Below, one piece after another: positions 12,021-57,558 of a DNA stretch of 64,000 nt. Within the stretch, counting starts at the first letter, position 1. Each line of letters opens with the position of its first letter. Source of the stretch: an uncultured Clostridia bacterium (GTDB lineage: Bacteria; Bacillota; Clostridia; Oscillospirales; CAG-272); the NCBI GenBank assembly GCA_947573405.1, contig CANPFW010000002.1:1695-65694 (forward strand). The letters run 5' to 3'. Made by a program: the position numbers and the translations under genes. The notes beneath the pieces were generated by a model that did no database searches, was not told the origin of the DNA, and saw only the letters and a list, made by a program, of their open reading frames with translations.

Positions 12021-12050
12021 GTCCACGCACTGCAGCACGCACAAATCACA

Positions 12051-12080
12051 AAAAACCTACAGGTTACCCTGTAGGTTTTT
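12051..12080 (-). terminator. Rho-independent terminator downstream of ispH-S1 (symmetrical, could act both ways)
   Basis: AAAAACCTACAGG-TTAC-CCTGTAGGTTTTT, a perfect 13-bp stem including the A/T runs, 8 nt past the stop at 12088. Confidence 0.75.
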
Positions 12081-12087
12081 GACTTAC

Positions 12088-14157: not shown

Positions 14158-14777
14158 GCCCGCTCCGTATCCTCCGTTGTTTTTCCGTCCAACGCACATA
14201 CTGCTGCAAAAATCTTCTCTGTTGCCGCCTTATACTCCTGTATGCCGCCCGTTTCAAAATTCAGGCTTTCATAAGGAAGCACATCGCCTACAATCAGTTC
14301 CGTTTTCCGGAAAAAGCGCGCCTTATTATTTTTTGTCTTAATGTATACCGGCACCACATCGCATTTCGTGTGATATGCCAGCATACCGGCGCCATGCTTC
14401 ACCTGCGTTTTTCTGGGATCCACACCCGGGCAGCGGGTTCCCTGCGGGAAAATCCCCACAAGCTGCCCCTCTTCCACCAAACGGATTGTTTTTCGGATCG
14501 ACGTAACATCTGCTCCGCCCCGATTGATAGGATATGCACCCAGCGCAGTAATCAGGGGACCAAGCAATGGAACTTTGAAAAGCTCCTTTTTCGCCATGTA
14601 CCGCACCTGCCGGTTCAATCCGGCAGAAATAATCAATACATCCAGCAAACTCGTATGATTGGCGCACAAAATGCATCCCCGCTCCTGGGGAAGCTTTTCA
14701 CCGCCCACAACCTGCACACGGAATACAGCGCGCAGCGGGTGGGCAAATAATTTATAAATATTTTGATAAAAGGACAT
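14154..14777 (-). CDS. plsC: 1-acyl-sn-glycerol-3-phosphate acyltransferase
   Basis: HX4D motif (ANHTSLLD) and GIFPQGTR block. 4-nt overlap with ispH. Confidence 0.9.
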   Translation of the reverse strand: MSFYQNIYKLFAHPLRAVFRVQVVGGEKLPQERGCILCANHTSLLDVLIISAGLNRQVRYMAKKELFKVPLLGPLITALGAYPINRGGADVTSIRKTIRLVEEGQLVGIFPQGTRCPGVDPRKTQVKHGAGMLAYHTKCDVVPVYIKTKNNKARFFRKTELIVGDVLPYESLNFETGGIQEYKAATEKIFAAVCALDGKTTEDTERA

Positions 14778-14803
14778 AACGCCTCCTGAAAACGGATGTA
14801 TGT

Positions 14804-15487
14804 TTACCGTGTTCTCCGCAGCTTTTCCCCGATAATCTCCATTGCCTTTACAAGAGTCTGATCTGCGTCCAGACCGGAATTGTCCACGAAAATCGCATCG
14901 TCTGCCGGAACCGCAGGAGCGATCTCCCTGCTGCTGTCCGCCTTATCCCGCTGGATTACGGCAGCCAGCACCTCTTCTTCTGTAACATTCTCTCCCTTTT
15001 CCACCATCTCCAGATATCTGCGATGCGCACGCTTTGCAGGGGACGCTTCCAGGAAGAGTTTTACATCCGCATCCGGCATAATCACTGTGCCGATGTCCCG
15101 CCCGTCCATGATTACGTTTCCTTCGCCTGCCATTTTCTTCTGGATCTCCAAAAGGAATTTACGCACGGAGGGATTCGCAGAAACAGTAGAAGCGTATACG
15201 GTAACCTCCGGTGTGCGGATCAACTCCGACACATCCTCCCCATTCAGGATCACCCGCTGTCCTCCATCAGTATACCGCAGCTGCAGCTGAATCCGGGGCA
15301 GGAGCGCCGTAACCTGCAGTCCTGCCGAGGGATCCACCCCCACACGCTTTACGTACAGTCCCACCGCACGGTACAATGCGCCTGTATCCACATATACAAG
15401 CCCCATTTCCCGGGCAATTTTTTTCGCCAGCGTACTTTTTCCGCTTCCGCTGGGTCCGTCAATTGCGATTCTGATTTTCTGATTCAT
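14804..15487 (-). CDS. cmk: cytidylate kinase
   Basis: IAIDGPSGSGKST P-loop and DTGALYRA motif. Confidence 0.95.
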   Translation of the reverse strand: MNQKIRIAIDGPSGSGKSTLAKKIAREMGLVYVDTGALYRAVGLYVKRVGVDPSAGLQVTALLPRIQLQLRYTDGGQRVILNGEDVSELIRTPEVTVYASTVSANPSVRKFLLEIQKKMAGEGNVIMDGRDIGTVIMPDADVKLFLEASPAKRAHRRYLEMVEKGENVTEEEVLAAVIQRDKADSSREIAPAVPADDAIFVDNSGLDADQTLVKAMEIIGEKLRRTR

Positions 15488-15527
15488 ATATTACCTCTCT
15501 GATTTTCTTTTAGCTTCTGCAAACTTG

Positions 15528-16784
15528 TTATTCCCCATCCAATATATACTGTGCCGCTCCCAGTCCTGCAAGCCTGCCGGTTGACCATGCAATCTGCAGA
15601 TTATACCCGCCGGTATATGCGTCCAGATCCAGCACTTCCCCGGCAAAAAACAACCCCGGAACGGCTTTTGCCATCATGGTTTTGGGATCAATCTCTTTTA
15701 TATCCACACCGCCGCAGGTGACAATCGCTTCCTCAACAGGACGGAATCCTGTAGGCGTCAGTGTAAAATCCTTCAGCACATCTGCCAGCCGTCCCCGCAT
15801 TTCCTTCGTTATGGCTCCTGTTTTCATCCGGGGCGGGATACCGCTGCGCTTTACCACCTCGGGAATCAGTACCCGGGGAAGCAAATCCCCCAAAGAATTG
15901 ATAAAATCCTTGGCAGCATACTTTTGTATATCTCCCAGCAGACGGGTGTCCAGCTCTGATTCAGACAGCGCCGGCTTCCAGTTAATGGACATGCGGTATT
16001 CACAGATATCCCCCGCCTGCATATGGGCAGAAGCGGAAAGCACCAGCGGTCCGCTGACACCGAAATGTGTAAACAGCATCTCGCCTTGCTCCGCAAACAC
16101 GGCTTTATCATTTCTATATACTGTCAGCCGCACATTTTTGGGAGACAACCCCATCCATTCCCGGGTATCCTCCCGGCACACGACCGGCACAAGGGATCCG
16201 GTCAAAGGCGTTACATGAAGTCCCGCATCCTTCGCCATGCGGTGTCCGTCTCCTCTGGATCCGGTGGCGGGGTAGGAAATGCCCCCTGTACAAACGATTA
16301 CCGCACGGTGGGAATACACATTCCCGATGCGTGTGCGAATGCCCTGTACAGTCCCTGCATCATACAGTATGCTGCTTACCTGCTCCCGTATGACGGGACA
16401 GTGCAGTTGCTTCAGCTTACGTTCCAATGCAGTGCAAACATCCGCTGCCCGGTCAGATACCGGAAACACACGTCTGCCCCGTTCCGTTTTCAAAGGAACG
16501 CCGCTGTCCTCAAAAAATTCTATTACGTCGGAAGGAGAAAACCGATACAACGCACTGTATAAAAACTTCCGGTTTCGGGTCACGTTCTCCATCACCTGCG
16601 CCGGCGTGCAGTCATTTGTGACATTACACCGCCCTTTACCGGTGATCCGCAGCTTTTTGCCGCAGGCGGCGTTTTGTTCATACAAAACTGCCTGTCCGCC
16701 AGCCTCTGCAACCGCGCATGCAGCCATCATCCCTGCCGGACCTGCACCGATAACAGCAACCGTGCTTTCCGTTCGGGCGCTCAC
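15528..16784 (-). CDS. HI0933/BaiN-family NAD(P)/FAD-dependent oxidoreductase
   Basis: VIGAGPAGMMAA dinucleotide fold. C-terminal GLFFAGEVLDLDAYTGGYNLQIAWSTG, typical of this family. Confidence 0.85.
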   Translation of the reverse strand: MSARTESTVAVIGAGPAGMMAACAVAEAGGQAVLYEQNAACGKKLRITGKGRCNVTNDCTPAQVMENVTRNRKFLYSALYRFSPSDVIEFFEDSGVPLKTERGRRVFPVSDRAADVCTALERKLKQLHCPVIREQVSSILYDAGTVQGIRTRIGNVYSHRAVIVCTGGISYPATGSRGDGHRMAKDAGLHVTPLTGSLVPVVCREDTREWMGLSPKNVRLTVYRNDKAVFAEQGEMLFTHFGVSGPLVLSASAHMQAGDICEYRMSINWKPALSESELDTRLLGDIQKYAAKDFINSLGDLLPRVLIPEVVKRSGIPPRMKTGAITKEMRGRLADVLKDFTLTPTGFRPVEEAIVTCGGVDIKEIDPKTMMAKAVPGLFFAGEVLDLDAYTGGYNLQIAWSTGRLAGLGAAQYILDGE

Positions 16785-17665: not shown

Positions 17666-17768
17666 AACCGGATCCTTTCGTACGCAGTATCTGCGTCTAC
17701 TGCCCATAGGCAGTTCTTTTCTAATGTATCATTATATCCTACCCATGCCGGATTGTCAAGTGCGGGAA

Positions 17769-18065
17769 GGTTTGCACAGCAAAACTCAGAGGGATTGTGT
17801 GAGCAGTACTGCCGATTGGCAGATCATTCAAAATGATCGTTTAACAATCCCCACCCGCTGCGCGGGAGTTCCCTTTACTGGGGGAAACCCAAACCAAACC
17901 CAAGCCTCCCTTGTGTAAAGGGAGGTGGGTTTTGCACAGCAAAACCCGGAGGGATTGTCCGAGTAGTACTGCCTATTTTGGGATCCTGCAAAATGATCGT
18001 ATAACAATCCCTCAGTCACAGCAAAGCTGTGACAGCTCCCTTTACACAAGGGAGCCTTTTTGTTG
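17769..18065 (+). repeat. mosaic intergenic repeat, locus R3: two tandem cores (B-C-D-F then A-B-C-D-E)
   Basis: Core a: AGAGGGATTGT 17788-17798 / ACAATCCCC 17844-17852, with D = CCCGC-TGC-GCGGG. Core b: GGAGGGATTGT 17948-17958 / ACAATCCCTC 18004-18013, with B = GGGTTTTGC-ACA-GCAAAACCC and D = GTCACAGC-AAA-GCTGTGAC. Confidence 0.9.
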
Positions 18066-18151
18066 TTTGCGCCGGGAGAGTTATTCGTATTCGCCGACAG
18101 TTTTTCTGATTGAAGCTTGATTTTAAAAAAACGCTGCAAAGTCGCTCCCAT

Positions 18152-20970: not shown

Positions 20971-21101
20971 GGTCCTCCCAGCAAAGGGAGAATCACGAAG
21001 TATCCAGCTTAAGAAGGCCCCCTTGTGCGGTGGTTCGAAAACGAACCACTGGGGCATCCCGCGTTAGCGGGTGAGGGATTGTCTTGCTATCATTTTGCAG
21101 G
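20971..21101 (-). repeat. mosaic intergenic repeat, locus R4 (inverted orientation; one arm only)
   Basis: GAGGGATTGT at 21073-21082 followed by ..ATCATTTTGCAGG (reverse complement of CCTGCAAAATGAT). Carries the rare GTGGTTCG-AAAA-CGAACCAC insertion also present in R5. No second arm before the apbE stop. Confidence 0.85.
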
Positions 21102-21127
21102 AACTTCATATCGACTGCCCTTTCAGA

Positions 21128-22183
21128 TTATTCCTCTATCATAATAGAAGCAAAACCGTCCGTATAATATAAATTGCCCTCTGCGTCAATCCAGGCAGCC
21201 TCCACATCTGCAATGCTGTCAACCAACGCTTTACCGCCCTCATATGTCATATTAAACACCGCAGTGGAAAGCGCATCTGCCATGCCTGCATCCCTGCAGA
21301 CAATGGATACGGAAACAAAACGGTTTTCCGGATACAGTGTGTCCGGATGAATGATATGATGATACCGCTCTCCGTCTACCATATAATACCGCTGATAGGA
21401 ACCGCTGGTCACCAGCGCCAGATCTGTCAGTGCAACCCGGCAGATAGATGCATCCTGCGCGCTCAGATCCGGATTTTGAATGCCCGCAGTCCAGGGAGTT
21501 CCGTCTCCTTTTGTTCCGATAGTGCGCACATTTCCTCCAATACTGAATGCCAGATGATCCCAGCCCATCTCTTCTGCCGCCAAAGCGATTTTTTCCGTAG
21601 CATATCCTTTTGCAATGGAACCGACGTCCAACTGCATTTTCGAATCAGATAAATACACTGTATGCTCCGCCCGATCTATAATAATCCCAGATATGTCCAT
21701 ATGCTGTGCCGCATCCTCCAATTCCTCACGGCTTGGCAAAGCGGCACGCTCTGGGCTCTCCGCACCAGCTTCTCTGTACGTATGCCAGATAGAGAGCACA
21801 CTCCCCATTGCCGCGTTTGTGAATCCATCTGTGACCCGGTACATTTCTATGCAATATTCCAGCAAATCCAAAATCCGTTCGTCAACGGATACCGGGCGCA
21901 CACCGGCATTATCGTTGATTGTTTTCAGATTGTTTATCCCATCGTAATCATGGTAAATATCATAAAGCTGATGATATTCCTCCAAAAGCTGCAGCAGCTT
22001 GTCTGTTTTGGCGTCAAACGCCTCTTTGGATGTATCAAATCCGGTAATCACCGCCACCGTATCGAATAAATCGAAAGAGGAACGGGAATAACGGTTCAAG
22101 TGGGTATTACTATCGCTGCCGCAGCCCGGTAAAACAGACAGAATCATTATCAGAGAGATCAGGAAAAAAGGATATTTTTTCAT
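21128..22183 (-). CDS. apbE: FAD:protein FMN transferase (ApbE family), lipoprotein
   Basis: Start at MKKYPFF (22183); the track ORF extends to 22276. Lipobox LSVLPGC. ApbE blocks DVGSIAKGYA and YHHIIHPDT. Confidence 0.9.
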   Translation of the reverse strand: MKKYPFFLISLIMILSVLPGCGSDSNTHLNRYSRSSFDLFDTVAVITGFDTSKEAFDAKTDKLLQLLEEYHQLYDIYHDYDGINNLKTINDNAGVRPVSVDERILDLLEYCIEMYRVTDGFTNAAMGSVLSIWHTYREAGAESPERAALPSREELEDAAQHMDISGIIIDRAEHTVYLSDSKMQLDVGSIAKGYATEKIALAAEEMGWDHLAFSIGGNVRTIGTKGDGTPWTAGIQNPDLSAQDASICRVALTDLALVTSGSYQRYYMVDGERYHHIIHPDTLYPENRFVSVSIVCRDAGMADALSTAVFNMTYEGGKALVDSIADVEAAWIDAEGNLYYTDGFASIMIEE

Positions 22184-22263
22184 ATGTGCAGTATGCCTTT
22201 CCCGGCTTTTGATTTTCTTTTTTGTGTAGGCAGGTGGTGCGAAAGCACCGTTAAACTTTATAA

Positions 22264-22496
22264 ACCTCTCCAGCAAAAGGGAGGTGGGCTTTGCGCATCA
22301 AAGCTTGGAGGAATTGTCAAGCCAAACTGCCGATTTGCAGATCCTGCAAAATGATAGCATGTGCATACAATCCCTCACCCGCTTCGCGGGATGCCCCAGT
22401 GGTTCGTTTTCGAACCACCGCACAAGGGGGCCTTTTAATGTGGGTGCCGCGCGGAAATTTCCTATGGAGCCACGTAGTGGATCCTCACATGGAGGA
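22264..22496 (+). repeat. mosaic intergenic repeat, locus R5 (A-B-C-D-insertion-E-G)
   Basis: Arms GGAGGAATTGT 22307-22317 and ACAATCCCTC 22367-22376 (49-nt spacer). B = GCTTTG-CGCAT-CAAAGC. D = CCCGC-TTC-GCGGG. Extra hairpin GTGGTTCG-TTTT-CGAACCAC. G box CCACGTAGTGGATCCTCACATGG. Confidence 0.9.
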
Positions 22497-26103: not shown

Positions 26104-26340
26104 AAGCCTCCCCTGTGCGAGGGGAGAAATCGCTGCAGTTCCACTAAACTTAAGCCTCCTTTGTGCAAAAGGAGGTGGATTGCCGCAGGCGAGACGGAGG
26201 AATTGTATAAGCTACATTACCGATTTGAAGATCCTGCAAAATGATAGCCGGAACAATCCCTCCGTCACAGCAAAGCTGTGACAGCTCCCTTTACTGGGGG
26301 GAGCCTTTTTATATGGGTGCTCCACGAGAGCTCTATGCCA
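26104..26340 (+). repeat. mosaic intergenic repeat, locus R6 (A-A-B-C-D-E/F)
   Basis: Arms GGAGGAATTGT 26196-26206 and ACAATCCCTC 26253-26262. D = GTCACAGC-AAA-GCTGTGAC. Confidence 0.9.
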
Positions 26341-27580: not shown

Positions 27581-28070
27581 AAAAAGGCTCCCACATAGGG
27601 AGCCAAATCCCCCCTTGTGCAAAGGGGGGATTTTTTAATTTAATGCTGTACAACAAGTTCTCTATGGAGACACGTAGTGGATCCTCACATGGGAGCCAGT
27701 ACGAACTAAAGCCTCCTTTGTGCAAAAAGAGGTGGCACAGCCTAATCATCCACCAATTCTAAGCCCCCCTTGTGCAAAGGGGGGTGTCACACCGCAGGCG
27801 TGACGGGGGGATTGTTTCGTTAGACAGCCGATTTGAAGATACTACAAAACGATAGTTTTACAATCCCTCAGTCACAGCAAAGCTGTGCCAGCCCCCTTTG
27901 CACAAGGGGGCCATTTTTAATATGAGTGCTACGCGGGAGTTCCCTTTGCTGGGGGGAGCCTTTTTAATATGGGTGCTACGTGGGAGCCCCCTTTGCTAGG
28001 GGGGAGCCTTTTATTGGTACAAGCTATGCCGTCTCCCTTTGGAGCCGCACAGCGGATCCTCCTCACATGT
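27581..28070 (+). repeat. mosaic intergenic repeat, locus R7: ~490-bp array (E-like, A, G, A, A, B, C, D, E, F, F, G)
   Basis: Arms GGGGGGATTGT 27805-27815 and ACAATCCCTC 27860-27869. G boxes at ~27660-27697 and ~28040-28070. Two tandem F units at 27921-28010. Fills essentially the whole 525-bp convergent intergenic region. Confidence 0.9.
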
Positions 28071-34496: not shown

Positions 34497-34830
34497 GCCT
34501 CCCTTGTGCAAAGGGAGTGGCTTGCCCTTTCTCCTATGTAAGCCCCCCTTGTGCAAAGGGGGGTGTCGCGGCATAGCCGTGACGGGGGATTGTTTACATA
34601 GACTGCCGATTTGCAGATTGTCCAAAGTGATCGTTTTACAATCCCTCAGTCGCTACCGCGACAGCTCCCTTTGCACAAGGGAGCCTTTTTATATTTGTGC
34701 TGCGCGGCAGCCCCTTTGCCGGGGGCCTTTTATAGTTTGCGCTGTACGACAGTTCCTTTGCCGGGGGCCTTTTTATAGTTTGCGCTGTGCGGGAGTTCTC
34801 TATGGAGCCACGTAGTGGATCCTCACATGA
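34497..34830 (+). repeat. mosaic intergenic repeat, locus R8 (A-A-B-C-D-E-F-F-G)
   Basis: Arms GGGGGATTGT 34584-34593 and ACAATCCCTC 34638-34647. B = GTCGCGGC-ATA-GCCGTGAC. D = GTCGC-TACC-GCGAC. Two tandem F units. G box CCACGTAGTGGATCCTCACATG. Confidence 0.9.
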
Positions 34831-38030: not shown

Positions 38031-38277
38031 GGCTTCCCCAGCAAAGGGAACTGCCACAAACGCTCGCCAAACTTCATTAGCCTCCCCCCAGCAAAGGGAG
38101 GTGGGCTTTGCGCAGCAAAGCTCGGAGGGATTGTCTAAACAATACTGTCGATTTGAAAATTATCCAAAATGATAGAAGGACAATCCCTCAGTCGCTTCGC
38201 GACAGCTCCCTTTGCACAAGGGAGCCTTTTTATTGGTGCGGACTGCGCGGATGCCCCCTCTGCTGGGGGGAGCCTTT
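38031..38277 (+). repeat. mosaic intergenic repeat, locus R9 (A-A-B-C-D-E-F)
   Basis: Arms GGAGGGATTGT 38124-38134 and ACAATCCCTC 38180-38189 (45-nt spacer). B = GCTTTGC-GCA-GCAAAGC. D = GTCGC-TTC-GCGAC. E = GCTCCCTTTGCACAAGGGAGC+T5. Confidence 0.9.
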
Positions 38278-38322
38278 CACCCAAACCTTCTGTGCAGCCT
38301 CAAAAAATGCTGAAAATCCTAC

Positions 38323-38351
38323 TTGACAGCAGGAAAAATCTGTGCTACAAT
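38323..38351 (+). promoter_or_regulatory. sigma-A promoter of the lysine-riboswitch/dapA operon
   Basis: TTGACA (38323-38328), 17 nt, TACAAT (38346-38351), immediately upstream of the L-box P1 strand. Confidence 0.7.
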
Positions 38352-38353
38352 AT

Positions 38354-38511
38354 CCGCAACACGGTAGAGGTGCATTGTGTCAAAAGTACTGCGGATGCAA
38401 AAGGGTTGACCGCCCGTTGTCAGCAGGAAAGGGGCAAATGCCGAAGGAAGACTGGAGTCGCGTCTGTCCTGGTTTGGATGAATAAGATCATCCCGACTGT
38501 CGCTTTTGCGG
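38354..38511 (+). promoter_or_regulatory. lysine riboswitch (L-box) aptamer
   Basis: P1 strands CCGCAA (38354-38359) / TTGCGG (38506-38511). Conserved L-box blocks GGTAGAGGTGC, AGTA, GAAAGGGG, GCCGAAGG, CTGG and ACTGTC in the canonical order. Located upstream of dapA-dapB-lysA. Confidence 0.85.
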
Positions 38512-38552
38512 AGAGCTATCTGAATTCTACAGGAATATCAGTTTGTTTGCAG

Positions 38553-38583
38553 AGTCGACCCGTGTGTCGGCTTTTTTGTTTTT
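38553..38583 (+). terminator. riboswitch expression-platform terminator
   Basis: AGTCGAC-CCGTGT-GTCGGCT followed by TTTTTTGTTTTT, 67 nt before the dapA ATG. Confidence 0.75.
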
Positions 38584-38649
38584 CCGGGAAATGCAAAAAT
38601 GCGCCGGACTTTGGAAAAAATATTTTATGTTCAGGAAAGCGAGAACAAC

Positions 38650-39537
38650 ATGAAAAAAACAATTTTTAAGGGAATCGCCACCGCGCTGATCACGCCCTTC
38701 AGTGCAGAAGGGATCGACTACGAGCAGTTCGGGCGTATCATTGACTGGCAGATTGAATCCGGCATCAACGCGCTGGTCGTCTGCGGCACCACCGGCGAAG
38801 CTTCCACCCTCACCGATGACGAGCACCGGGATGCCATTGCCTTTGCCGTCAAGCGTGCCGCAGGCAAGGTGCCCATTATTGCAGGCACCGGCTCCAACGA
38901 TACCGGATATGCGCGGGATCTGACCCGCTGCGCCTGTGAGGCAGGGGCGGACGCGGTACTGGTGGTAACGCCTTATTACAACAAGGCAACCCAAAAGGGA
39001 CTTGTAAAAATGTTCACCGACATTGCAGATATGAGCGACGCACCTGTGATTCTATATAACGTTCCATCCCGCACCGGCGTAAATATTGAACCGGATACCT
39101 ACCGTATTTTAGCAGATCACGAAAACATCTGCGGCATTAAAGAAGCAAACGGCAATCTTTCCAAAATCGTGGAAACCATGTCCTATGTTTACGGCAAGCT
39201 GGATCTGTATTCCGGAAACGATGATCAAATTGTACCGCTCATGTCCGTAGGCGGAATCGGCGCAATCTCCGTTCTTTCCAACGTGCTCCCGAAAGAAACC
39301 TGCCAGATTGCAGAAAAATTCTTTGCAGGGGATATCCACGGCGCGGCACAGCTTCAGTATCAGTACCATGCGCTCATCAGCGCCCTTTTCTCTGAAGTAA
39401 ATCCCATTCCCGTAAAAGCTGCAATGGCTGCAATGGGATTCTGTGAAAACACGCTGCGTCTGCCGCTGACTCCCATGGATGAAGCCAAAGAAGCAGCTAT
39501 GCTGCAAATTATGCGTACACACGGACTGATTTCATAA
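38650..39537 (+). CDS. dapA: 4-hydroxy-tetrahydrodipicolinate synthase
   Basis: Start at MKKTIFKGIATALITPF. GTTGE motif and an active-site Lys region (GIKEANG). Confidence 0.95.
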   Translation: MKKTIFKGIATALITPFSAEGIDYEQFGRIIDWQIESGINALVVCGTTGEASTLTDDEHRDAIAFAVKRAAGKVPIIAGTGSNDTGYARDLTRCACEAGADAVLVVTPYYNKATQKGLVKMFTDIADMSDAPVILYNVPSRTGVNIEPDTYRILADHENICGIKEANGNLSKIVETMSYVYGKLDLYSGNDDQIVPLMSVGGIGAISVLSNVLPKETCQIAEKFFAGDIHGAAQLQYQYHALISALFSEVNPIPVKAAMAAMGFCENTLRLPLTPMDEAKEAAMLQIMRTHGLIS

Positions 39538-41632: not shown

Positions 41633-41647
41633 GAAACTGAGCCAAAC

Positions 41648-41804
41648 AAAAAAGGCTCCCTTGTGCAAAGGGAGCTGTCGCGGTAGCGACTGAGGGATTG
41701 TCTATCTATCATTTTATATAATCTTCAAATTGATAGTCTGACTTAACAATCCCTCCGTCATGCCTATGGCATGCCACCTCCCTTTACACAAGGGAGGCTT
41801 TTTG
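41648..41804 (-). repeat. mosaic intergenic repeat, locus R10 (only complete core in inverted orientation)
   Basis: On the + strand: AAAAAAGGCTCCCTTGTGCAAAGGGAGC (E reversed), GAGGGATTGT 41692-41701, ACAATCCCTCC 41746-41756, then CCACCTCCCTTTACACAAGGGAGGCTTTTTG (A reversed). As placed, both ends present hairpin+T-run terminators toward the convergent lysA and prmA genes. Confidence 0.9.
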
Positions 41805-42751: not shown

Positions 42752-43878
42752 GAATCCTTTCTGAAAAACTTCTTCATGAATTTTTCCCGTTTGGAATGAT
42801 TGTTGCTTCCACAGGATTCATGGAATTGGCGCAGCAAATCCTTCTGTTTTCCGTTCAGCCCTTTGGGGACTTCCACAACCACAGTGATATACATATTTCC
42901 CCGGTTTTTGGAATTGACCACCTGCACGCCTTTGTTTTTCAGCGTAAAGGTAGTGCCGGTCTGGGTTCCCTCAGGAATATGCAGGGTTTCGCTTCCATCA
43001 ATAGTAGGTACCTGCAAATCCGCGCCAAGGGCAGCATCTGCAAATGTGACTGGAACGTCACAGTATATGTCATATCCGTCCCGCTCGAAAAAGGCATGGG
43101 GACGCACATTCACGGAAATGGTGAGATCCCCTGCGGGACCGCCGTTTCTGCCGTCGCTTCCTTCTCCCCGCAGTGCGATGCCCTGTCCATCGTCAATACC
43201 TGCCGGAATGGATACCTCCAGCTTTTTCGTTGCACGGACATATCCTCCGCCCCGACAGTTTTTACAGGGCGTATCAATGATTTTACCACTGCCGCGGCAC
43301 CGGTCACAGGTTTTGGAAGTCTGCATCACTCCGAAAGGTGTGCGCTGCTGTACATTCACCTGTCCGCGTCCACCGCAATCGGGACACTGTTTTGCACTGG
43401 TTCCCTTTGCAGCGCCGCTGCCGTTACAATCCGGACACTTTTGAATTCTCTGATACTGCACTTCTTTTTTGCAGCCGAACACAGCTTCTTCAAAGCTGAG
43501 GGTCACCCGCAGACGCACATCGTCCCCGCGAACGGGACCGTTCGGTCTGCGGGAAGATCCTCCGCCAAAAAAGCTGGAGAAAATATCCGATATATCAAAC
43601 CCGTCAAACCCACCAAAGCCGCCTGCCCCACCGCCGAAGCCGGAGGCAGGATCAAATGCCGCGTGGCCGTACTGGTCGTATTTTCCTTTTTTATCCGGGT
43701 CAGAAAGCACATCGTATGCTTCATTGACCTCTTTAAACTTTCCTTCTGCTACCTTGTCGCCGGGATTCATATCCGGATGATACTGTTTTGCCAGCTTTCG
43801 ATACGCTTTCTTGATCTCGTCCTCGGATGCTCCCTTTGAAAGGCCCAGCACTTCATAATAATCACGTTTATCTGCCAT
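42748..43878 (-). CDS. dnaJ: chaperone DnaJ
   Basis: J domain (YYEVLG...HPD), G/F region and four CxxCxGxG zinc motifs. Confidence 0.97.
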
Positions 43879-43982
43879 GTACTGTTTTACCCTTCCTGCA
43901 ATATTGGGTGCACAGACTGATTAGCGGGAAACAGCCGGGGCAAAAATTTCGCCCCGGCGCCTGCCCGTCAGCCTATGCAATT

Positions 43983-45839
43983 TTACTGGTTGTCGCTCTT
44001 GTCTTCATAGTCTGCGCTGTAGAAAGTACCGTCGCCGCCCTGTGCGCCTGCACCGGGATCCCCTGTAAAGCCTGCTCCGGCAGCACCTGCGTCTGCCCCT
44101 GCACCACTCTGCTGATACAGCTTTTCACTGATCTTATAGAAGGATTTCTCCAAAGCTTCCATATCTGCTTTGATTGCTTCTGTGTCGCCGCCGGCAAGTG
44201 TTGCACGCAGCTTTTCCACTGCAGCCTGCACTTCTGCCTTTTCAGCCTCGTCAATTTTATCACCCAATTCGCCCAGTGTTTTCTCGCACTGGAATGCAAG
44301 GGACTCAGCGCGGTTTTTGATTTCGATGGTTTCTTTCTGCTTTTTATCTTCTTCAGCAAACTTCTCCGCATCCTTCACTGCCTTGTCGATTTCATCCTGA
44401 GACATGTTGGTAGAAGAAGTAATTGTGATATGCTGTTCCTTACCTGTTCCTTTATCCTTTGCAGATACGTTTACAATACCGTTTGCGTCGATATCAAAGG
44501 TAACCTCAATCTGGGGCACGCCTCTGGGAGCAGGTGCAATGCCGTCCAGAGAGAACCGACCCAATGTGGTATTGCCCGCAGCCATTTCACGTTCACCCTG
44601 GAGCACGTGAATTTCAACAGAGGTCTGACCGTCTGCCGCTGTGGAATATACTTGGCTCTTCTTTACAGGAATGGTGGTATTCCGGTCAATGATCCGGTTG
44701 AACACGCCGCCCAGTGTTTCGATACCGAGGGACAGAGGCGTTACGTCCAGCAGGAGCAGATCCTTTACATCGCCGCCGAGAACGCCGCCCTGGATTGCTG
44801 CGCCGATTGCAACGCATTCGTCCGGGTTGATACCTTTGAAGGGTTCTTTGCCTGTATAATTCTTAATCGCTTCCTGTACGGCAGGAATACGGGTGGAACC
44901 GCCTACCAAAAGCACCTTATCAATCTGAGAAGCAGTCAGCCCTGCATCGGACAGCGCCTGCTTTGTGGGATCAATGGTTTTCTGCACCAGATCCGCAGTC
45001 AGCTCGTTGAATTTTGCACGGGTAAGGGTTGCGTCAAAGTGCTTGGGACCGGTAGCGTCCGCAGTGATAAAGGGCAGGTTGATATTGGAGCTTGCCACGC
45101 CGGACAGCTCGATTTTTGCCTTTTCTGCCGCTTCCTTCAATCTCTGGAGCGCCATTTTATCTTCCCGCAGGTCAATGCCGTTTTCCTGCTTGAAGGTATC
45201 TGCAATCCAGTCAATGATCCGCTGGTCGAAATCATCGCCGCCCAGTTTGTTGTTGCCGGCGGTCGCCAACACTTCAAACACGCCGTCGTCACTGATTTCC
45301 AGTATGGATACGTCAAAGGTACCGCCGCCAAGGTCATAGATCATAACCTTCTGATCTTTGTCCTGATCCGCGCCGTATGCAAGTGCAGCAGCAGTCGGCT
45401 CGTTGATAATACGAAGCACTTCCAGTCCGGCGATTTTACCTGCGTCCTTGGTTGCCTGACGCTGTGCGTCGGAGAAGTATGCAGGCACAGTGATTACTGC
45501 CTGATTGACAGGCTGACCCAAATATGCCTCTGCATCCGCTTTCAGCTTCTGCAGAATCATTGCAGAAATCTCCTGGGGAGTATAGCTCTTATCGTCAATG
45601 GTAACCTTCTTGCTGGTACCCATGTCACGCTTGATACTCATAACGGTTCTGTCCGGGTTGGTGATACCCTGGCGCTTTGCTACCTGACCGACCATTCTTT
45701 CACCTGTTTTGGAGAATGCCACTACGGACGGTGTGGTCCGTGCGCCCTCCGGATTGGGGATTACAGCAGGTTCCCCGCCTTCAAACACTGCTACGCAAGA
45801 GTTTGTTGTTCCTAAATCTATTCCGATAATTTTTGCCAT
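43983..45839 (-). CDS. dnaK: chaperone DnaK (Hsp70)
   Basis: [10 protein letters not shown] and DLGGGTFD signatures; full-length Hsp70. Confidence 0.98.
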
Positions 45840-48805: not shown

Positions 48806-48996
48806 AAAAAGGCTCCCCATTAAAGGAAGCCTTTTTATAATCCAAGTCTCCCCCAGTAAAGGGAGGTGGGCTTTGCGCAGCAAAGCTCGGAGGGATTGTT
48901 TGCATAGACTGCCAATTTGAAGAATATCCGAAATGATCGAAGGACAATCCCTCAGTCGCTTCGCGACAGCTCCCTTTGCACAAGGGAGCCTTTTTC
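48806..48996 (+). repeat. mosaic intergenic repeat, locus R11 (E-like, A-B-C-D-E)
   Basis: Arms GGAGGGATTGT 48889-48899 and ACAATCCCTC 48944-48953. The B and D hairpins are identical to R9 (GCTTTGC-GCA-GCAAAGC; GTCGC-TTC-GCGAC). Confidence 0.9.
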
Positions 48997-49022
48997 TTTT
49001 TCGTCTGTACTATTTTTAACCT

Positions 49023-51964: not shown

Positions 51965-52004
51965 GAATGGATGTTGCGTCGGCAGTTCCCTTACTCAATA
52001 TAGT

Positions 52005-52033
52005 AAAAGGAGAGGAAAAATCCCTCTCCTTTC
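52005..52033 (-). terminator. Rho-independent terminator of the 2-oxoacid dehydrogenase operon
   Basis: AAAGGAGAGG-AAAAAT(C)-CCTCTCCTTT, 9 nt past the stop at 52042; the minus-strand reading ends in a T-rich tract. Confidence 0.65.
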
Positions 52034-52041
52034 CTTATATT

Positions 52042-54528
52042 TTACAGTCCCTGTTTACTTCTTTCCATGTGCTCGATTTCCGATTCATTCACCGTACTCA
52101 CATGACCAGGAATGGGCAAAATCTTCTGACTGATTACGTCAATAATGCCGTCTGCCTGAGGGAAGAAATACTTCTCAAACTCATATGCAGGGGTGATCCA
52201 GTTGCGGGAACCGAATACAACCGGCGGCGCATCCAGATAATCAAACGCCATTTCCGCAATGTTGGACGCCATATCACGCATTACGGAGTTTCTGTCGCAG
52301 GCATCTCCCACAATGATAATACGTCCGGTTTTCTTCACACTTTCCAGCACCTTATCATAGTTGAACGGCACGATAGAGCGCGCATCAATCACTTCTGCAC
52401 TGATACCGTACTGCTCCTCCAGCTTCTTCGCTGCAGCAAGACCCCGATACAATACTGCGCCGATGGTGAGGATCGTCACATCCGTACCTTCCCGCTTCAC
52501 GTCCGGTTCACCAAATGGAACTTCGTAGCTTTCCGCAGGAACGCCGCCCTCATGGAACTGCTCGCCGATATCGTAGATCCGCTGACTTTCAAAGAAAATA
52601 ACCGGATCGGTTCCGTTCAGCGCTGCACACATCAGACCCTTTGCATCGTAAGGCGTTGCAGGGAAGCAGACCTTCAGTCCCGGAATATGCGCGGTGAGCG
52701 CCGTCCAGTCCTGACTGTGCTGTGCACCGTATTTGGAACCAACAGAAACACGCACCACTACAGGCATTTTCAGAATGCCGGCGGACATGGACTGCCATTT
52801 GGACAGCTGGTTGAAAATTTCATCGCCTGCACAGCCGATAAAGTCCGCATACATCAACTCTACAATGGCACGGCCGCCCGCCATAGCGTATCCTACGGCA
52901 GAACCGACAATCGCGGCTTCAGAAATGGGAGAATTGAAGAAACGGTGATAGGGAATCGCCTCGGTGAGACCGCGGTATACGGCAAACGCGCCGCCCCAGT
53001 CACGGTTATCCTCACCGTATGCAATCAGCGTGGGATCTTCATAGAATTTATCAATAATTGCTTCAAAAATACCGTCCCGCAGACCAAACTGCTTAATTTT
53101 AGGAATCAGTTCGCCTTTTTCATCATAAGCATAACGCGCTTTGCCGGCGATCTGCTTCAGACGGGGGTTCTCTTCTTTGGAAATCAGCACCTCCGGCTCA
53201 CGCTGGGGATCCATAGAAGGCACAGACTGATTGGAGAACATAATAGAAGAAATAATATCCGGCTGACTGTCCAGATCCATTCTGGGGGAGATTTCCTCAT
53301 CAATGGACATGCGGCAGATCTTGGTGATCCGTTTGATAATATCTTCTTCAATTGCGTCAAACTCTTCTTCTGTTGCAATGCCGCCTGCTACCATTTTGTT
53401 CCGGTATGCCGCGATAGGACAAGCAGCTTTCCACTCCTCAATTTCCTCCTGACTTCTGTAGGTGGAAGAATCGGATGGAGAATGTCCGCTGACGCGGTAT
53501 GTGGCAACCTCCAGCATTGCCGGACCTTCTCCCTTGATGAGAAGCTCCTTCTTGCGCTGGGTAGCGTCAATCACTGCAAGAGGATCATAGCCGTTTACTT
53601 TTTCCGCATGGAGCATATCCGGATTGAAGCCTGCGCCGAGACGTGCAGCGATGTCAAAGCCCATGGTTTCGCCGCGAGTCTGACCGCCCATACCGTAGAA
53701 GTTGTTGAATACGTTAAACAAAATCGGCATGCCGCCGTCATCGTATTTGCCGTCCATGCCCCACAGCTTGCGTATCTGATCCATAGACGCCATGTTGAGG
53801 GCTTCCAGAACAGGTCCCCGTCCCAGCGCACCGTCGCCGGAGTTGGCAATAACAATTCCCTTTTTATGATTGCTCCGTTTATACAGGGCAGCGCCAAGGG
53901 CAACGGGAGCCGCACCGCCCACGATTGCGTTATTGGGAAAAATTCCGAAAGGAATAAAGAATGCGTGCATGGATCCGCCAAGACCCTTGTTAAAGCCTGT
54001 AGTCCGGGCAAAGATTTCTGCAAGTGCGCCGTACAGAAGGAAGTCGATTGCAAGCTCCTTTACATCGCCCTGCTTTTCCTGCTTACCTTCTACCACCTTC
54101 AAAATATTACCGCCCAGGAATTCCTTCATAATGTCATACAGTTCTGTTTCTGTAAGCTTCTCAATAGAGGAAAGTCCTTTTGCAAGAATCTCACCGTGGC
54201 TGCGGTGGGATCCGAAGGTGAAATCGTTGATGTCCAGGCAGTATGCCTGACCCACTGCGGAGGCTTCCTGCCCGATAGACAGGTGCGCCGGACCGGGGTT
54301 GGTATACTCTACGCCGTTGTACACACTTTTGGTTTTGATTTCGTTGAGCATGGTTTCAAATTCCCGGATGATCCGCATATCCCGGTAAATCCGCAGAAAA
54401 TCTTCCTTGGTGTACAGCTTCTTTTCCTGTGCCAATGTCTTTTTGTACTGGCACAGGGGAATTTTATCAAAAGAAAGGAATCCGGATGCAAATGCATCGC
54501 TGGGACTGATATATTGATTCTTTGGCAT
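52042..54528 (-). CDS. 2-oxoacid (pyruvate/acetoin-type) dehydrogenase E1 component, fused alpha and beta subunits
   Basis: 828 aa. N-terminal half carries the TPP-binding SGDGALGRG...N motif. C-terminal half carries the transketolase-like pyrimidine-binding region (FNSPISEAAIVGSAVGYAMAGG). Confidence 0.88.
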   Translation of the reverse strand: MPKNQYISPSDAFASGFLSFDKIPLCQYKKTLAQEKKLYTKEDFLRIYRDMRIIREFETMLNEIKTKSVYNGVEYTNPGPAHLSIGQEASAVGQAYCLDINDFTFGSHRSHGEILAKGLSSIEKLTETELYDIMKEFLGGNILKVVEGKQEKQGDVKELAIDFLLYGALAEIFARTTGFNKGLGGSMHAFFIPFGIFPNNAIVGGAAPVALGAALYKRSNHKKGIVIANSGDGALGRGPVLEALNMASMDQIRKLWGMDGKYDDGGMPILFNVFNNFYGMGGQTRGETMGFDIAARLGAGFNPDMLHAEKVNGYDPLAVIDATQRKKELLIKGEGPAMLEVATYRVSGHSPSDSSTYRSQEEIEEWKAACPIAAYRNKMVAGGIATEEEFDAIEEDIIKRITKICRMSIDEEISPRMDLDSQPDIISSIMFSNQSVPSMDPQREPEVLISKEENPRLKQIAGKARYAYDEKGELIPKIKQFGLRDGIFEAIIDKFYEDPTLIAYGEDNRDWGGAFAVYRGLTEAIPYHRFFNSPISEAAIVGSAVGYAMAGGRAIVELMYADFIGCAGDEIFNQLSKWQSMSAGILKMPVVVRVSVGSKYGAQHSQDWTALTAHIPGLKVCFPATPYDAKGLMCAALNGTDPVIFFESQRIYDIGEQFHEGGVPAESYEVPFGEPDVKREGTDVTILTIGAVLYRGLAAAKKLEEQYGISAEVIDARSIVPFNYDKVLESVKKTGRIIIVGDACDRNSVMRDMASNIAEMAFDYLDAPPVVFGSRNWITPAYEFEKYFFPQADGIIDVISQKILPIPGHVSTVNESEIEHMERSKQGL

Positions 54529-54552
54529 AACGGTTCTATCTCCTTTTTTATT

Positions 54553-55926
54553 TTAATCAATCATAAACATGCCTTCCCGTATGACTTCGCATACGGTAGG
54601 ATGAGGGAATACCAGTTTCTGTACATCGCTAACCCGCTGCCGGGCTGCAACCATTGCCGCCGCTCCGTAAATAATTTCGGAAGCGTAGGAGCCGATCATA
54701 TGGACGCCGATAATGGTTTTATGAGCGTCATCCACAACGATTTTTACAATACCGTCTCCGCCCTCCACTTCGGCTACATACCGTCCGCTGTAACGAAGGC
54801 TGACTGTATGTTCTGTTGCCTGCACCCCGCGTTTTGCGGCGCTTTCCACCGTGTCGCCCACAGTGCCCACTTCCGGTTTTGTGTAGATCACGGCAGGAAT
54901 GGCTAAATAATCGACCCGGTCTGTGGCACCCAGCATATCGGACACGGCAACCTCGCCCTCCCGGTATGCGGTATGCGCCAGCATACTGCGTCCGTTTACA
55001 TCACCTGCTGCCCAGATTCCCGGAACGGAGGTTCTGCCCCGGTCATCACAGACAACTGCGCCCCGATCCAGCAGAACACCGGCTTTTTCCAGTCCGATAG
55101 CTGCGGTGCGCGCCCGTCTGCCGGTACTTACTAAAACTGCATCGCAGTCAATGGAAACAGACTTTCCATCCGCTTCACAGGTTACTGTTTTCTTCTCACT
55201 GCTCACGGACGTGACCTTTGCGCCAAGAAGGAAACGGATGCCCTTCTTCTCCAAGTTTTTCTGCAAAACGGCAGATATATCTTTATCTGTAGGACCGGCG
55301 ATCTTATCCAGCATTTCCACTACAGTGACTTGTGTGCCCACAGTGCTGAAATAAGACGCCATTTCCAGCCCGATCACGCCACCGCCGATAACGCACAACT
55401 GCTTCGGCACGGTACGCATGTCAAGAATTTCCCGGTTGGTCATGGCAAAGCCTGCTGTCACTGCCTCCCGCAATCCTTCTACAGGAGGCACTGCCGCTTC
55501 GCTTCCGGTGCAGATGAGGAGCCGTTTTCCCTGATACACTGCTTCCCCGCACCGCACCTGAAATCCGTCCGGGTTTTTGCCGGTAATACAGCCGGTTCCG
55601 TTCACCACAGTAACCTTTGCCCCCCGCATTTTCGCACCGACACCGGACACCAGTGTTTTTACCACTTTATCCTTGCGATCCACCACCTTAGCGTGGTCAA
55701 TGGATGCGCTGGACACCGTCACGCCGTAATCCGCGCCATGAAGAACGCTTTCATAAATCTTTGCAGAGTTCAGCAATGTTTTTGTAGGAATGCAGCCTTC
55801 GTTGAGACACACGCCGCCAAGGGCACGTTCCTCTATCAGCAGTACCTGCATCCCGCTGTGTGCCGCACGCTCCGCCGCATTATAGCCCGCCGGACCGCCG
55901 CCCAATATCATCAAATCATATACCAT
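54553..55926 (-). CDS. lpdA: dihydrolipoyl dehydrogenase (E3)
   Basis: GGGPAGYNAA FAD fold, redox-active CLNEGCIPTK, second dinucleotide fold and a dimerisation domain. Confidence 0.93.
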   Translation of the reverse strand: MVYDLMILGGGPAGYNAAERAAHSGMQVLLIEERALGGVCLNEGCIPTKTLLNSAKIYESVLHGADYGVTVSSASIDHAKVVDRKDKVVKTLVSGVGAKMRGAKVTVVNGTGCITGKNPDGFQVRCGEAVYQGKRLLICTGSEAAVPPVEGLREAVTAGFAMTNREILDMRTVPKQLCVIGGGVIGLEMASYFSTVGTQVTVVEMLDKIAGPTDKDISAVLQKNLEKKGIRFLLGAKVTSVSSEKKTVTCEADGKSVSIDCDAVLVSTGRRARTAAIGLEKAGVLLDRGAVVCDDRGRTSVPGIWAAGDVNGRSMLAHTAYREGEVAVSDMLGATDRVDYLAIPAVIYTKPEVGTVGDTVESAAKRGVQATEHTVSLRYSGRYVAEVEGGDGIVKIVVDDAHKTIIGVHMIGSYASEIIYGAAAMVAARQRVSDVQKLVFPHPTVCEVIREGMFMID

Positions 55927-57330: not shown

Positions 57331-57558
57331 AGCCCCCCCTTGTGTAAAGGGGGGTGGCATGCCGTAGGCATGTCGGAGGGATTGTTTCACTATGCTATCA
57401 ATTTGCAGATATTGACAAACGATAACTTTACAATCCCTCCGTCTCCGCTTCGCGGAGCCAGCTCCCTTTGCACAAGGGAGCCTTTTTATTTGTGCGAGGT
57501 TGCGCGTCACCTTCCCTTGCTGGGGCTTGAATCGGTGTAATGGATCCGCACATAGGGG
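57331..57558 (+). repeat. mosaic intergenic repeat, locus R13 (A-B-C-D-E-F-G)
   Basis: Arms GGAGGGATTGT 57375-57385 and ACAATCCCTC 57430-57439. B = GGCATGCC-GTA-GGCATGTC. D = CTCCGC-TTC-GCGGAG. Confidence 0.9.

Follow-up and report, generated by a model that had tools for sequence, protein, structure and literature searches.

The sequence at positions 38080-38231 of the window (the entire 64-kb stretch of DNA analyzed here) is R9, one of 14 copies of a modular palindromic repeat of ~160 bases whose variation suggests hairpin cassettes exchanged among copies at the level of DNA, and not one functional RNA. As the best explanation, to which we give about an even chance of being correct, the copies represent a new, resident, high-copy family of mosaic palindromic DNA repeats of the REP, BIME or BOX kind, in which pairing is kept by selection or by templated self-correction. 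If this is true, several per cent of the intergenic DNA in an uncultured lineage of gut Clostridia is taken up by a repeat system not described before; the analogous REP/BIME class has been studied mainly in Proteobacteria, and in the present case hairpin structure is kept without hairpin sequence.

The modules of R9 follow the order outer hairpin (A), variable hairpin (B), invariant GGAGGGATTGT, a core of ~45 nt, ACAATCCCTC, variable hairpin (D) and terminator-like hairpin (E), with two mirror-image arms flanking an asymmetric core of conserved sequence. Read inward, a single arm proceeds from the outer hairpin through a GC-rich variable hairpin to the invariant [G/T]GAGGGATTGT. The repeat sequences quoted in a first-pass annotation of this DNA were located as reported, at R9 and elsewhere, and all of the stem variants that it listed were recovered in the window. 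The features of R9 and its flanks are as follows:

38031-38079, + strand: additional left-hand outer unit, made up of a degenerate hairpin of A type (GGCTTCCCCAGCAAAGGGAAC) and a spacer; units of this kind stand in tandem in L122
38080-38102, + strand: module A, outer hairpin GCCTCCC-CCCAGCAAA-GGGAGGT ("type 2" allele)
38103-38123, + strand: module B, variable hairpin GGGCTTTGC-GCA-GCAAAGCTC, nine pairs with G.T at position 2
38124-38134, + strand: C-left, the sequence-invariant inverted-repeat arm GGAGGGATTGT
38135-38179, + strand: asymmetric core, which sets the orientation of the element; its conserved blocks are ACTGYCGATTT and AAAATGATAG
38180-38190, + strand: C-right, ACAATCCCTCA, reverse-complementary to C-left at all but the outermost base
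38191-38203, + strand: module D, variable hairpin GTCGC-TTC-GCGAC
38204-38231, + strand: module E, AGCTCCCTT-TGCAC-AAGGGAGC (hairpin 38205-38225), then C and TTTTT
38232-38275, + strand: outer "F" unit on the right, comprising a spacer, half a D hairpin and the type-2 E hairpin GCCCCCTCTGCTGGGGGGAGC

On the - strand, the left outer unit presents a terminator-like hairpin followed by a T-run. Module A also occurs as a "type 1" allele, CCTCCCTT-GTGCA-AAGGGAGG, and the switch between the two types is polymorphic within species; A approximates the reverse complement of E, the pair forming terminal inverted repeats, and the palindrome at times runs on into A/T runs. Module B bears a GCA triloop with a C-G closing pair, module D reads GTCGC-GAA-GCGAC on the - strand and includes GCGAAGC, and module E, intrinsic-terminator-like on the + strand, corresponds to an A-type hairpin read on the opposite strand. 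The outer F units differ in copy number among strains. The Chi-like word GAAGCGG lies within CCCGC-GAA-GCGGG, and words of FtsK/SpoIIIE type as well as Chi-like words, all too short to judge, occur in both orientations per element.

Searched with nhmmer, the window yielded 12 full copies in addition to R3a, which lacks module A, and the truncated R4; these 14 elements, and 21 palindromic units of A/E type, are intergenic without exception. The 11-mer GGAGGGATTGT occurs 27 times in the window at no more than one mismatch (1.18 expected) and the gapped core pattern nine times (0 expected), and the core elements alone account for ~3.4% of the window. Copies other than R9 are:

R1, 9217-9381, + strand: between convergent genes; orthologue in the sister species L031; variants within species
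R2, 11803-11960, + strand: nested hairpin inside A
R3a, 17768-17885, + strand: without module A
R3b, 17901-18064, + strand
R4, 21009-21137, - strand: shortened by an 89-bp deletion; complete in strains L135, L112 and L138
R5, 22260-22440, + strand: nested palindrome GGTTCGTTTTCGAACC inside E
R6, 26151-26313, + strand
R7, 27759-27920, + strand: tandem array of F units
R8, 34539-34693, + strand: with F units, fills the recX-miaB spacer
R10, 41647-41800, - strand: opposite orientation at the same site in strains L104 and L108
R11, 48844-48998, + strand: closest relative of R9, 89% identical
R13, 57331-57490, + strand
R15, 62146-62299, + strand

Copies within the genome are ~70% identical (mean pairwise 0.70-0.71), with a maximum of 0.89 apart from one local duplication. 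The recX-miaB spacer occupied here by R8 measures only ~14 bp in the more distant relative L123. A remnant of the element lies near 4290-4327.

The first-pass annotation held that the flanking hairpins keep pairing while their sequence changes, and this was borne out. Among 88 distinct arms, drawn from MAGs of about five related lineages, in an alignment that was built around the hairpins and is biased toward the structure, 96.2% of cells in the B/D helix were paired, with both sides varying at eight of nine pairs, and 91.2% in the A/E helix, including the paired T/A to C/G switch that had been noticed (UA 49, CG 27). The covariation score was 0.479, compared with 0.135 +/- 0.008 in shuffles (0 of 500 reached 0.479) and at most 0.119 when partners were slid by one to three columns. 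The variable hairpins are part of the element, and complementarity is kept over at least 44 unrelated stem sequences; B type is independent of D type (permutation p = 0.53), in agreement with the proposal that left and right hairpins combine freely. Within species, SNPs fall mostly in loops, where the G..A ends are preserved, and those in stems mostly yield G.T. Copies of one genome share on average only ~70% of their sequence, which means that pairing must be under active maintenance. A three-way-junction minimum-energy fold pairing A with E was rejected, since A and E alleles show no association (odds ratio 0.44, p = 0.44).

Left and right arms are reverse complements of each other, and this extends to the loops. 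In the inward direction, the loops are G..A in 64 of 88 arms and T..C in none (0/88), and follow a G/R-N-A form that upholds the purine-N-A loop first described; the closing pair is C-G in 79 of 88 arms. GCGN(N)AGC occurs in 48 of the 88 arms in the arm frame, as against two in reverse-complement form, and at the hairpin tip is exactly the motif d(GCGNAGC) / d(GCGNNAGC) of an extraordinarily stable DNA mini-hairpin (PMC13037366, PMC3201870); the mini-hairpin is a physico-chemical motif and not a genetic element, and what these papers establish is its stability and not a function in genomic repeats of the present type. The position-2 G.A/G.T mismatch is likewise mirrored between arms, and the left-arm insert CAAGCGTAGCGAT is the reverse complement of the right-arm insert ATCGCTACGCTTG. 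Triloops are commonest, and about half of the tallied 4-nt G..A tetraloops are not GNRA. Since inward G..A loops, C-G closure and GCGN(N)AGC characterize both arms, the arms are read on opposite strands; mirrored down to loop polarity and the position-2 mismatch, they are thus optimized on opposite strands, and a single folded transcript does not fit this.

The central stem formed by GGAGGGATTGT and ACAATCCCTC is conserved in sequence and shows no covariation, its sole variable pair being non-compensatory (A-T 25, G.T 14, A.C 9, G-C 0, i.e. 0/48). RNAalifold found no conserved secondary structure within the core, and the 10-mer and several core blocks do not vary, although identity elsewhere in the element falls to ~70%. 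The covariation had been taken at first as the mark of a functional RNA or a single-stranded DNA fold: the single-stranded DNA half of that reading fares better, and the RNA half is at odds with swapped blocks, mirrored arms and the non-covarying C stem.

A cis-acting RNA element of 3' UTRs, which would serve as a symmetric bidirectional terminator and a cluster of mRNA-stabilizing stem-loops, is an unlikely alternative; each convergent transcript would read its own arm inward and end at the far E-type hairpin with its U-run. All four gene contexts occur among 44 copies (20 convergent, 13 tandem antisense, 6 tandem sense, 5 divergent), which ties the element to no single transcript; in favor of this model, convergent gene ends are enriched (20/44 against 25% expected, p = 0.004) and divergent contexts depleted (5/44). 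Module E is canonically terminator-like: E only, not the whole element, was flagged as an intrinsic terminator at 26284, 27891, 34664, 38205 and 41675(-), and a T-run follows it in 36 of 51 copies. The perfect palindromes fold in transcripts of both strands, non-Watson-Crick pairs are mainly G.T in the inward frame, and the element folds far more stably than shuffles (z = -7.3 on one strand and -5.9 on the other). Inward transcripts from convergent genes also see both arms in the favorable frame, which leaves room for an RNA role. The model is countered, however, by R3a/b, R5, R6 and R9, whose hairpins are intact between divergent promoters (predicted promoters of recA and dapA for R9), and by 13 of the 19 tandem contexts, in which the side with the terminator points away from the gene upstream. 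Only 17 of 44 copies have an A-run ahead of A, so that the reverse direction mostly lacks a U-tract; the dominance of triloops and the many non-GNRA tetraloops are unfavorable as well, and the invariant 10-mers and asymmetric core have no role in the model. Even where genes give no cue, orientation follows GC skew: the top strand is the C-rich strand by 38:13 overall (p = 6e-4) and by 16:4 where flanking genes give no direction, in a small sample with skew taken on fragments of 3.5-8 kb. Selection against the E terminator inside operons could alternatively explain the bias in tandem contexts. In our best reading, as a family of DNA repeats, terminator activity is a side effect. The repeats place terminator-like hairpins between and within operons.

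Those apparently compensatory differences between stem types that comparison of strains caught in the act of changing moved as whole cassettes. At the R9 site, among conspecific strains with identical RecA, one block swaps half of the core, D and E together, module D changing from GTCGC-TTC-GCGAC to CCCGC-TAC-GCGGG in L104/L106/L108/L110; at the R10 site the whole element is inverted among conspecific strains. A loop flip, GTGCA/TGCAC, is the sole difference at that position between the outer-hairpin copies of two strains, the TTGTG/CCCAG switch is clustered and recurrent, with identical multi-base switches at separate sites, and a nested hairpin is gained or lost. Copy-number variation in units of 41-66 bp is common, and arms are swapped or duplicated relative to the core in L007 and L002 (discordant arms in 2 of 54 copies). 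The two halves of a palindrome of 13-21 nt are inherited together in every case, which makes the classical argument from covariation weaker here than in an RNA gene; taken alone, even strong covariation among short palindromic repeats of DNA is no evidence of functional RNA. The repeats also constitute hypervariable markers among otherwise nearly identical strains. The discordant L007 and L002 prompted the idea of an inverton (invertible promoter), which was rejected because the segment is short (~45 bp) and without a consistent promoter, discordance is rare and no invertase lies in the window.

These same rearrangements bear on the view, to our minds quite improbable, that the repeats are functionless selfish or neutral palindromes maintained by quasipalindrome correction and gene conversion, with covariation a mutational artefact. 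The solitary loop flip, the recurrence of multi-base switches at distinct sites, block replacement and inversion at fixed sites, the frequent slippage and the frequent decay by deletion (R4, R3a and the remnant noted above) are all as this view expects. The excess of G..A over T..C loops (64 versus 0) and the C-G closure are non-random, however, and strand-symmetric correction would not keep them; nor does the view accommodate the invariance of the 10-mer and core blocks, the occupation of the same sites in species ~90% identical, or the bias in both context and strand.

All of our data derive from a few MAG lineages that are related to one another. The family occurs in the CASTST01, CATLAS01, CANTEM01 and CAKVBG01 MAGs and in L122, and is absent from the more distant L123 and L124. 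One copy lies within a phage-tail gene cluster. More than 40 conspecific loci showed internal rearrangements and no clean presence/absence pair, and a target-site duplication was not obtained, the only empty site (L123, 78% identity) being too diverged to place junctions; mobility is accordingly deduced solely from the appearance of the element at new sites, one of them in prophage-like DNA. Neither cultured phage nor plasmid collections contained a match to the repeat, and a literature search with motif strings returned unrelated primer matches only. Pfam detected no transposase, recombinase, integrase, invertase or RAYT in the window, and a Y1-transposase probe, a weak query, had no match in 1.4 Mb of collected loci. 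An autonomous parent or partner gene was looked for beside solo arms, which adjoin ordinary genes. Contigs end at the repeats, which break metagenome assemblies and draw spurious ORF calls.

Rfam, applied to the whole window at the gathering threshold, identified a lysine riboswitch only, the repeat matching no family, and on R9 by E-value threshold gave chance-level matches only (E >= 1.4). The functional-RNA reading of the first-pass annotation, here cast as a family of stand-alone structured small RNA genes or a single-strand five-hairpin ncRNA with RNA-level covariation, has very little chance of being right: strong covariation in B, D, A and E, a stable predicted fold and an E that could be its own terminator speak for it, but no conserved promoter was found in or beside the element, orientation to genes is inconsistent, several copies lie between divergent promoters, right-arm loops are the reverse complement of the favored form on the terminator-bearing strand, the central stem lacks covariation, A-E pairing is unsupported (odds ratio 0.44, p = 0.44), arm types are swapped or duplicated relative to the core (L007, L002), and one copy per ~4.6 kb is a density far above that of any small RNA family known to us.

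Under the preferred explanation of a mosaic DNA repeat family, the invariant 10-mers and core would form a sequence-specific recognition site for a putative protein, and the variable hairpins would be modules in which only structure counts, folding in DNA that is single-stranded or extruded, probably on the top strand for the left arm and the bottom strand for the right, with loops corresponding to d(cGNAg)/d(cGNNAg) mini-hairpin motifs. Hairpins would be inherited and exchanged as whole cassettes, through recombination or gene conversion at the conserved motifs, in keeping with the block exchange observed; selection may eliminate stems that lose pairing, or template switching within the strand may restore them. 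Outer units expand and contract by slippage, as seen among strains. In transcripts the modules may form stem-loops and E may terminate, which probably limits the locations and orientations tolerated. A more specific version, which we regard as unlikely, is a protein-serviced, REPIN-like system of Clostridia. Its unit would be a mini-hairpin of any sequence, d(cGNAg)/d(cGNNAg), with a conserved basal mismatch and next to the invariant 10-mer, used on opposite strands by a putative structure-specific enzyme (HUH/Y1-type or other) at the replication fork. If true, it would account for the replication-strand bias, the arrival of copies in prophage-like DNA and the cassette exchange. Such a domesticated single-stranded-DNA repeat system would, as far as we know and as literature searches showed, be the first described for Clostridia.

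Among known systems, the repeat resembles the REP, BIME and REPIN sequences of Proteobacteria, for which RAYT Y1 transposases provide the enzyme, as short, GC-rich, imperfect palindromes numbering in the hundreds, extragenic only and in mosaics with other motifs, and resembles REP/BIME further in vertical persistence at fixed sites, preference for 3' ends and stem-loops able to act on transcripts. REPINs consist of inverted pairs forming a longer hairpin (PMC3116915), and here the two arms, around a ~45-nt core, are reverse complements of each other, although their composite make-up is atypical. There is no sequence similarity to REP/BIME, and an arm here comprises two hairpins and an invariant 10-mer; REP classes are sequence-conserved per genome, whereas these stems (at least 44 distinct) vary freely with structure alone kept. 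Unlike REP, the family has no near-identical "master" copies (mean identity 70%) and no RAYT gene was found in the sequence examined, and the REPIN/RAYT studies that we found concern Pseudomonas and enterobacteria, as opposed to a Clostridia lineage. MITEs (Correia of Neisseria, bcr1 of the Bacillus cereus group) are similarly non-coding intergenic elements of 100-200 bp with inverted-repeat ends that can carry terminators or promoters; the present repeat differs in that no target-site duplication was shown and no insertion sequence sharing its ends turned up as a parent, its copies are old and divergent, and its most conserved inverted repeat is internal rather than terminal.

Judging from the BOX consensus, the repeat is to our knowledge unrelated to BOX in sequence. 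BOX of Streptococcus pneumoniae (described with RUP and SPRITE; PMC3049150) is nonetheless a modular intergenic repeat of Firmicutes with one module in variable tandem number, complementary terminal modules that fold the whole element, and no transposase of its own; its variable-number units are inner, whereas here they are outer (A, E/F), and the present repeat combines an asymmetric core with an internal inverted repeat that does not vary. With integron attC sites and the ends of IS200/IS605, which are recognized as single strands of DNA in folded form, the repeat shares retention of structure while sequence varies, and strand-specific use tied to replication; no integrase, TnpA or cassette context accompanies it, the attC R/L boxes (GTTRRRY) are absent from its consensus, and IS200/IS605 hairpins share one strand whereas these arms are optimized on opposite strands. 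Both systems also have conserved stem mismatches or extrahelical positions, comparable to the position-2 G.A/G.T described here. The G.T wobbles of the stems are compatible with RNA and DNA alike.

The repeat copy under study, R9, lies at positions 38080-38231 of the window, and its core is flanked by inverted-repeat arms, variable hairpins (modules B and D) and outer hairpins (modules A and E):

from 38080, hairpin A, GCCTCCC...GGGAGGT
38103-38123, hairpin B, GGGCTTTGC-GCA-GCAAAGCTC
38124-38134, 11-mer left of the core, GGAGGGATTGT
between GGAGGGATTGT and ACAATCCCTCA, core of 45 nt
38180-38190, 11-mer right of the core, ACAATCCCTCA
38191-38203, hairpin D, GTCGC-TTC-GCGAC
38205-38225, hairpin E, GCTCCCTT-TGCAC-AAGGGAGC, followed by C and TTTTT

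Allowing at most one mismatch, we counted 27 occurrences of the 11-mer in the window against 1.2 expected. A gapped core pattern had nine occurrences, with none expected. A profile made from the copies delineated 14 elements: 12 full, R3a (lacking module A) and the truncated R4. All 14 are intergenic on a crude map of the window, our gene maps being longest-ORF heuristics. A solo remnant between pth and mfd (4290-4327) retains the right half of the core and ACAATCCCTCA without hairpins. A second family of small palindromes, GGAKCCRC-(GNA/ATA)-GYGGMTCC, sits nested in A/E hairpin loops in both orientations, and hairpin E of R5 and R4 has a different palindrome, GGTTCGTTTTCGAACC, nested within it. 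Sites of such nested palindromes include window positions 11803-11850, 9400-9431, 22385-22420 and 34800-34830 and the external loci L059, L014, L058 and L006; at the R10 site, one of the GGAKCCRC type is present in metagenomic locus L122 and absent from the window.

The first-pass annotation had proposed compensatory changes in the hairpins flanking the core, and every stem variant it listed was found in the window. Arms were extracted one by one, each being read inward along its own strand (first the outer hairpin, next the variable hairpin, last (G/T)GAGGGATTGT), giving 88 distinct arms that were aligned from the stem base. Pairing reaches 96.2% in the variable helix, where both sides change in eight of nine pairs, and 91.2% in the outer helix, which includes the T-A/C-G switch also described earlier; distinct stems number at least 44. 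On this alignment, which was fitted to the hairpins, the covariation score of 0.479 far exceeds that of shuffles (0.135 ± 0.008; none of 500 as high) and of controls with partners slid 1-3 columns (at most 0.119). Copies within one genome share a mean identity of only ~70% (maximum 89%), and the pairing is therefore not a residue of recent duplication; it is actively maintained by something. The suggested free combination of left and right hairpin types is likewise borne out, B and D types being independent within elements (p = 0.53).

The two arms are mirror images. Read inward, loops have the form G..A in 64 of 88 arms, of both types, and the reverse complement T..C in none; 79 arms close the loop with C-G. 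GCGNAGC or GCGNNAGC occurs in 48 arms versus two with its reverse complement, and the GCGNAGC-type motif has been described as a DNA mini-hairpin of extraordinary stability, for which closure by C-G is required (PMC13037366, PMC3201870). The second base pair is a conserved non-Watson-Crick G.A or G.T, mirrored between arms, and where left-arm loops have longer inserts, these are the reverse complements of the inserts in right-arm loops. Any single strand therefore carries one arm in unfavourable form. Many right arms have CCCGC-GNA-GCGGG hairpins (22378-22390, 62257-62269) containing, in the inward frame, AGCGG or GAAGCGG, which match the Chi sequences reported for Bacillus subtilis and Staphylococcus aureus; words of this length allow no judgement, and the match may be coincidence.

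The comparison of strains drew on those that share the same RecA and have nearly identical flanks. R9 exists as two haplotypes differing in one contiguous block, the right half of the core with D (GTCGC-TTC-GCGAC versus CCCGC-TAC-GCGGG) and E (T/A versus C/G), and also in the count of 41-bp outer units. The entire R10 element lies in opposite orientation between strains, and there, in two strains' copies of one outer hairpin, a loop flip from GTGCA to TGCAC is the sole difference at that position. The A/E hairpin shows a clustered TTGTG/CCCAG switch that has recurred at several sites. Such block replacement, inversion and recurrent switching indicate that unrelated stem types travel as cassettes, which are shuffled by recombination or gene conversion anchored in conserved motifs, and unit number is changed by slippage, outer units of 45-66 bp varying in copy number at R1, R7 and R8. 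The truncated R4 derives from an 89-bp deletion, and a 21-nt hairpin nested in an outer loop is variably present. Of elements in two external loci (L007, 2356-2510; L002, 7111-7254), one has its arm types exchanged relative to the core and the other left-type arms on both sides, which suggests recombination inside the invariant 10-mers. Point differences fall chiefly in loops, with G..A ends retained (GCAA to GTTA, GCA to GAA); most in stems yield G.T.

Our preferred reading, which we hold at about an even chance, is a mosaic palindromic repeat whose hairpins are used as folded DNA, with a protein-binding core and a terminator-like E. The hairpins would form either in DNA that is single-stranded at the fork or by cruciform formation, and the invariant 10-mers with the core form a candidate protein-binding site. 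E-type hairpins may terminate transcripts, which would account for a 3'-end preference and for antisense placement within operons such as recX-miaB. Gene context is biased: among 44 elements having two callable neighbours, 20 are convergent, 13 tandem antisense, six tandem sense and five divergent. A purely RNA-level, bidirectional 3'-end element is a rival reading that we consider unlikely. R9 has a strong recA promoter match (37962-37934, - strand) on one side and the predicted lysine-riboswitch promoter (38323-38351, + strand) on the other, and is therefore expected to be absent from both mRNAs. Element orientation follows the replication strand: with GC skew measured on short fragments, 38 of 51 elements have their top strand on the C-rich strand (p = 6e-4), and a ratio of 16:4 persists where neighbouring genes are convergent or divergent and so offer no directional cue. 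Under the folded-DNA reading, mispaired stems might be cleared by selection or by template-switch correction; that the palindromes are functionless and simply self-correcting strikes us as improbable.

The central stem is kept by sequence: GAGGGATTGT and ACAATCCCTC are invariant, and the only variable pair is A-T in 25, G.T in 14, A.C in nine and G-C in none. The inner core has conserved blocks, yet gave no consensus structure. In the minimum-energy fold A and E join in a long-range pairing, which is left unsupported by their alleles, these showing no association. Of the functional RNA or single-stranded DNA fold proposed at first, the maintained pairing stands; we do not favour one functional RNA, given the mirrored arms, a central stem held by sequence without covariation, the unsupported A-E pairing, mixed contexts and strand-linked orientation, and a stand-alone structured RNA is very improbable.

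The element resembles REP/BIME/REPIN and BOX repeats in its extragenic GC-rich palindromes and inverted pairs, its mosaic modules in variable number and its persistence at fixed sites. Unlike REP, it lacks both a sequence-conserved class and near-identical copies, and no RAYT gene was found in the sequence searched. Neither target-site duplication nor a parental insertion sequence, features of MITEs, was found for it, and it differs from integron attC and IS200-IS605 in having no attC boxes and no TnpA. By behaviour it is REP/BIME/BOX-like, but the features that would make it a member of one of these families are lacking or were not found in the sequence searched. No Rfam family matched the repeat, nor did the literature, searched by motif string, or cultured phage and plasmid collections.

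In a scan of GTDB species representatives, true copies occurred only in four uncultured Eubacteriales/Clostridia MAGs (CASTST01, CATLAS01, CANTEM01, CAKVBG01), remaining matches being chance; all genomes are MAGs of one narrow clade. Two CASTST01 loci, L012 and L031, are orthologous to window 9481-15530 and 7276-9352 (~90-93% identity) and have the element at the sites of R2 and R1, respectively. Searches for exact matches to four proteins (RecA, MnmG, Cmk and one of the DUF386 family) gave more than 40 conspecific-strain loci, and a RecX metagenome scan gave three: L122, from a close lineage, has elements at all three neighbouring sites; L123, a more distant relative, has a recX-miaB gap of ~14 bp versus ~360 bp of repeats in the window; and L124, still more distant, has no element. 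Metagenome contigs of the window species, many of them short, often end at or just inside repeats, so that the elements break short-read assemblies; two (L114, L115) end ~170 bp past mnmG. Two IMG/VR contigs have true copies (L154, L158). The complete element in L154 (UViG_3300006131_000123, 11940-12100) separates two tail-fibre-like genes in a cluster for a contractile phage tail (sheath, tube, tape measure, baseplate), which shows that the family has spread into prophage-like or tailocin-like DNA.

The window is an ordinary chromosomal stretch (pth, mfd, cmk, ispH-S1, mnmG, miaB, recX, recA, prmA, secG), with dapA-dapB-lysA behind a lysine riboswitch, dnaJ-dnaK-grpE-hrcA and a 2-oxoacid dehydrogenase operon; a Pfam and gene-content survey found no transposase or recombinase in it. 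Further features are:

38357-38526, + strand, lysine riboswitch (Rfam RF00168, 74 bits)
38169-38669 (+), 17828-18151 (-) and 9120-9431 (-), repeat-crossing ORFs of 103-166 aa
18315-20894, + strand, 859-aa protein without Pfam match
51967-54906, + strand, 979-aa protein without Pfam match
8020-9132, + strand, 370-aa putative lipoprotein without Pfam match

The riboswitch lies directly downstream of its near-consensus promoter and upstream of dapA-dapB-lysA, and its expression platform may be the terminator-like hairpin at 38551-38574. The longest ORF at 43827-45815 (+) matches Pfam NAD-GH (PF10712); its location, with dnaJ on one side and grpE-hrcA on the other, marks it as an antisense shadow of - strand dnaK and not a real gene. 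The 979-aa ORF may be a further shadow, since public calls on the opposite strand are 2-oxoacid dehydrogenase E1 and dihydrolipoamide dehydrogenase. ORFs crossing repeats probably arise spuriously from the GC-rich palindromes; public gene calls contain those at 38169-38669 (166 aa, no Pfam match; L102 and L103) and 17828-18151 (107 aa; L135).
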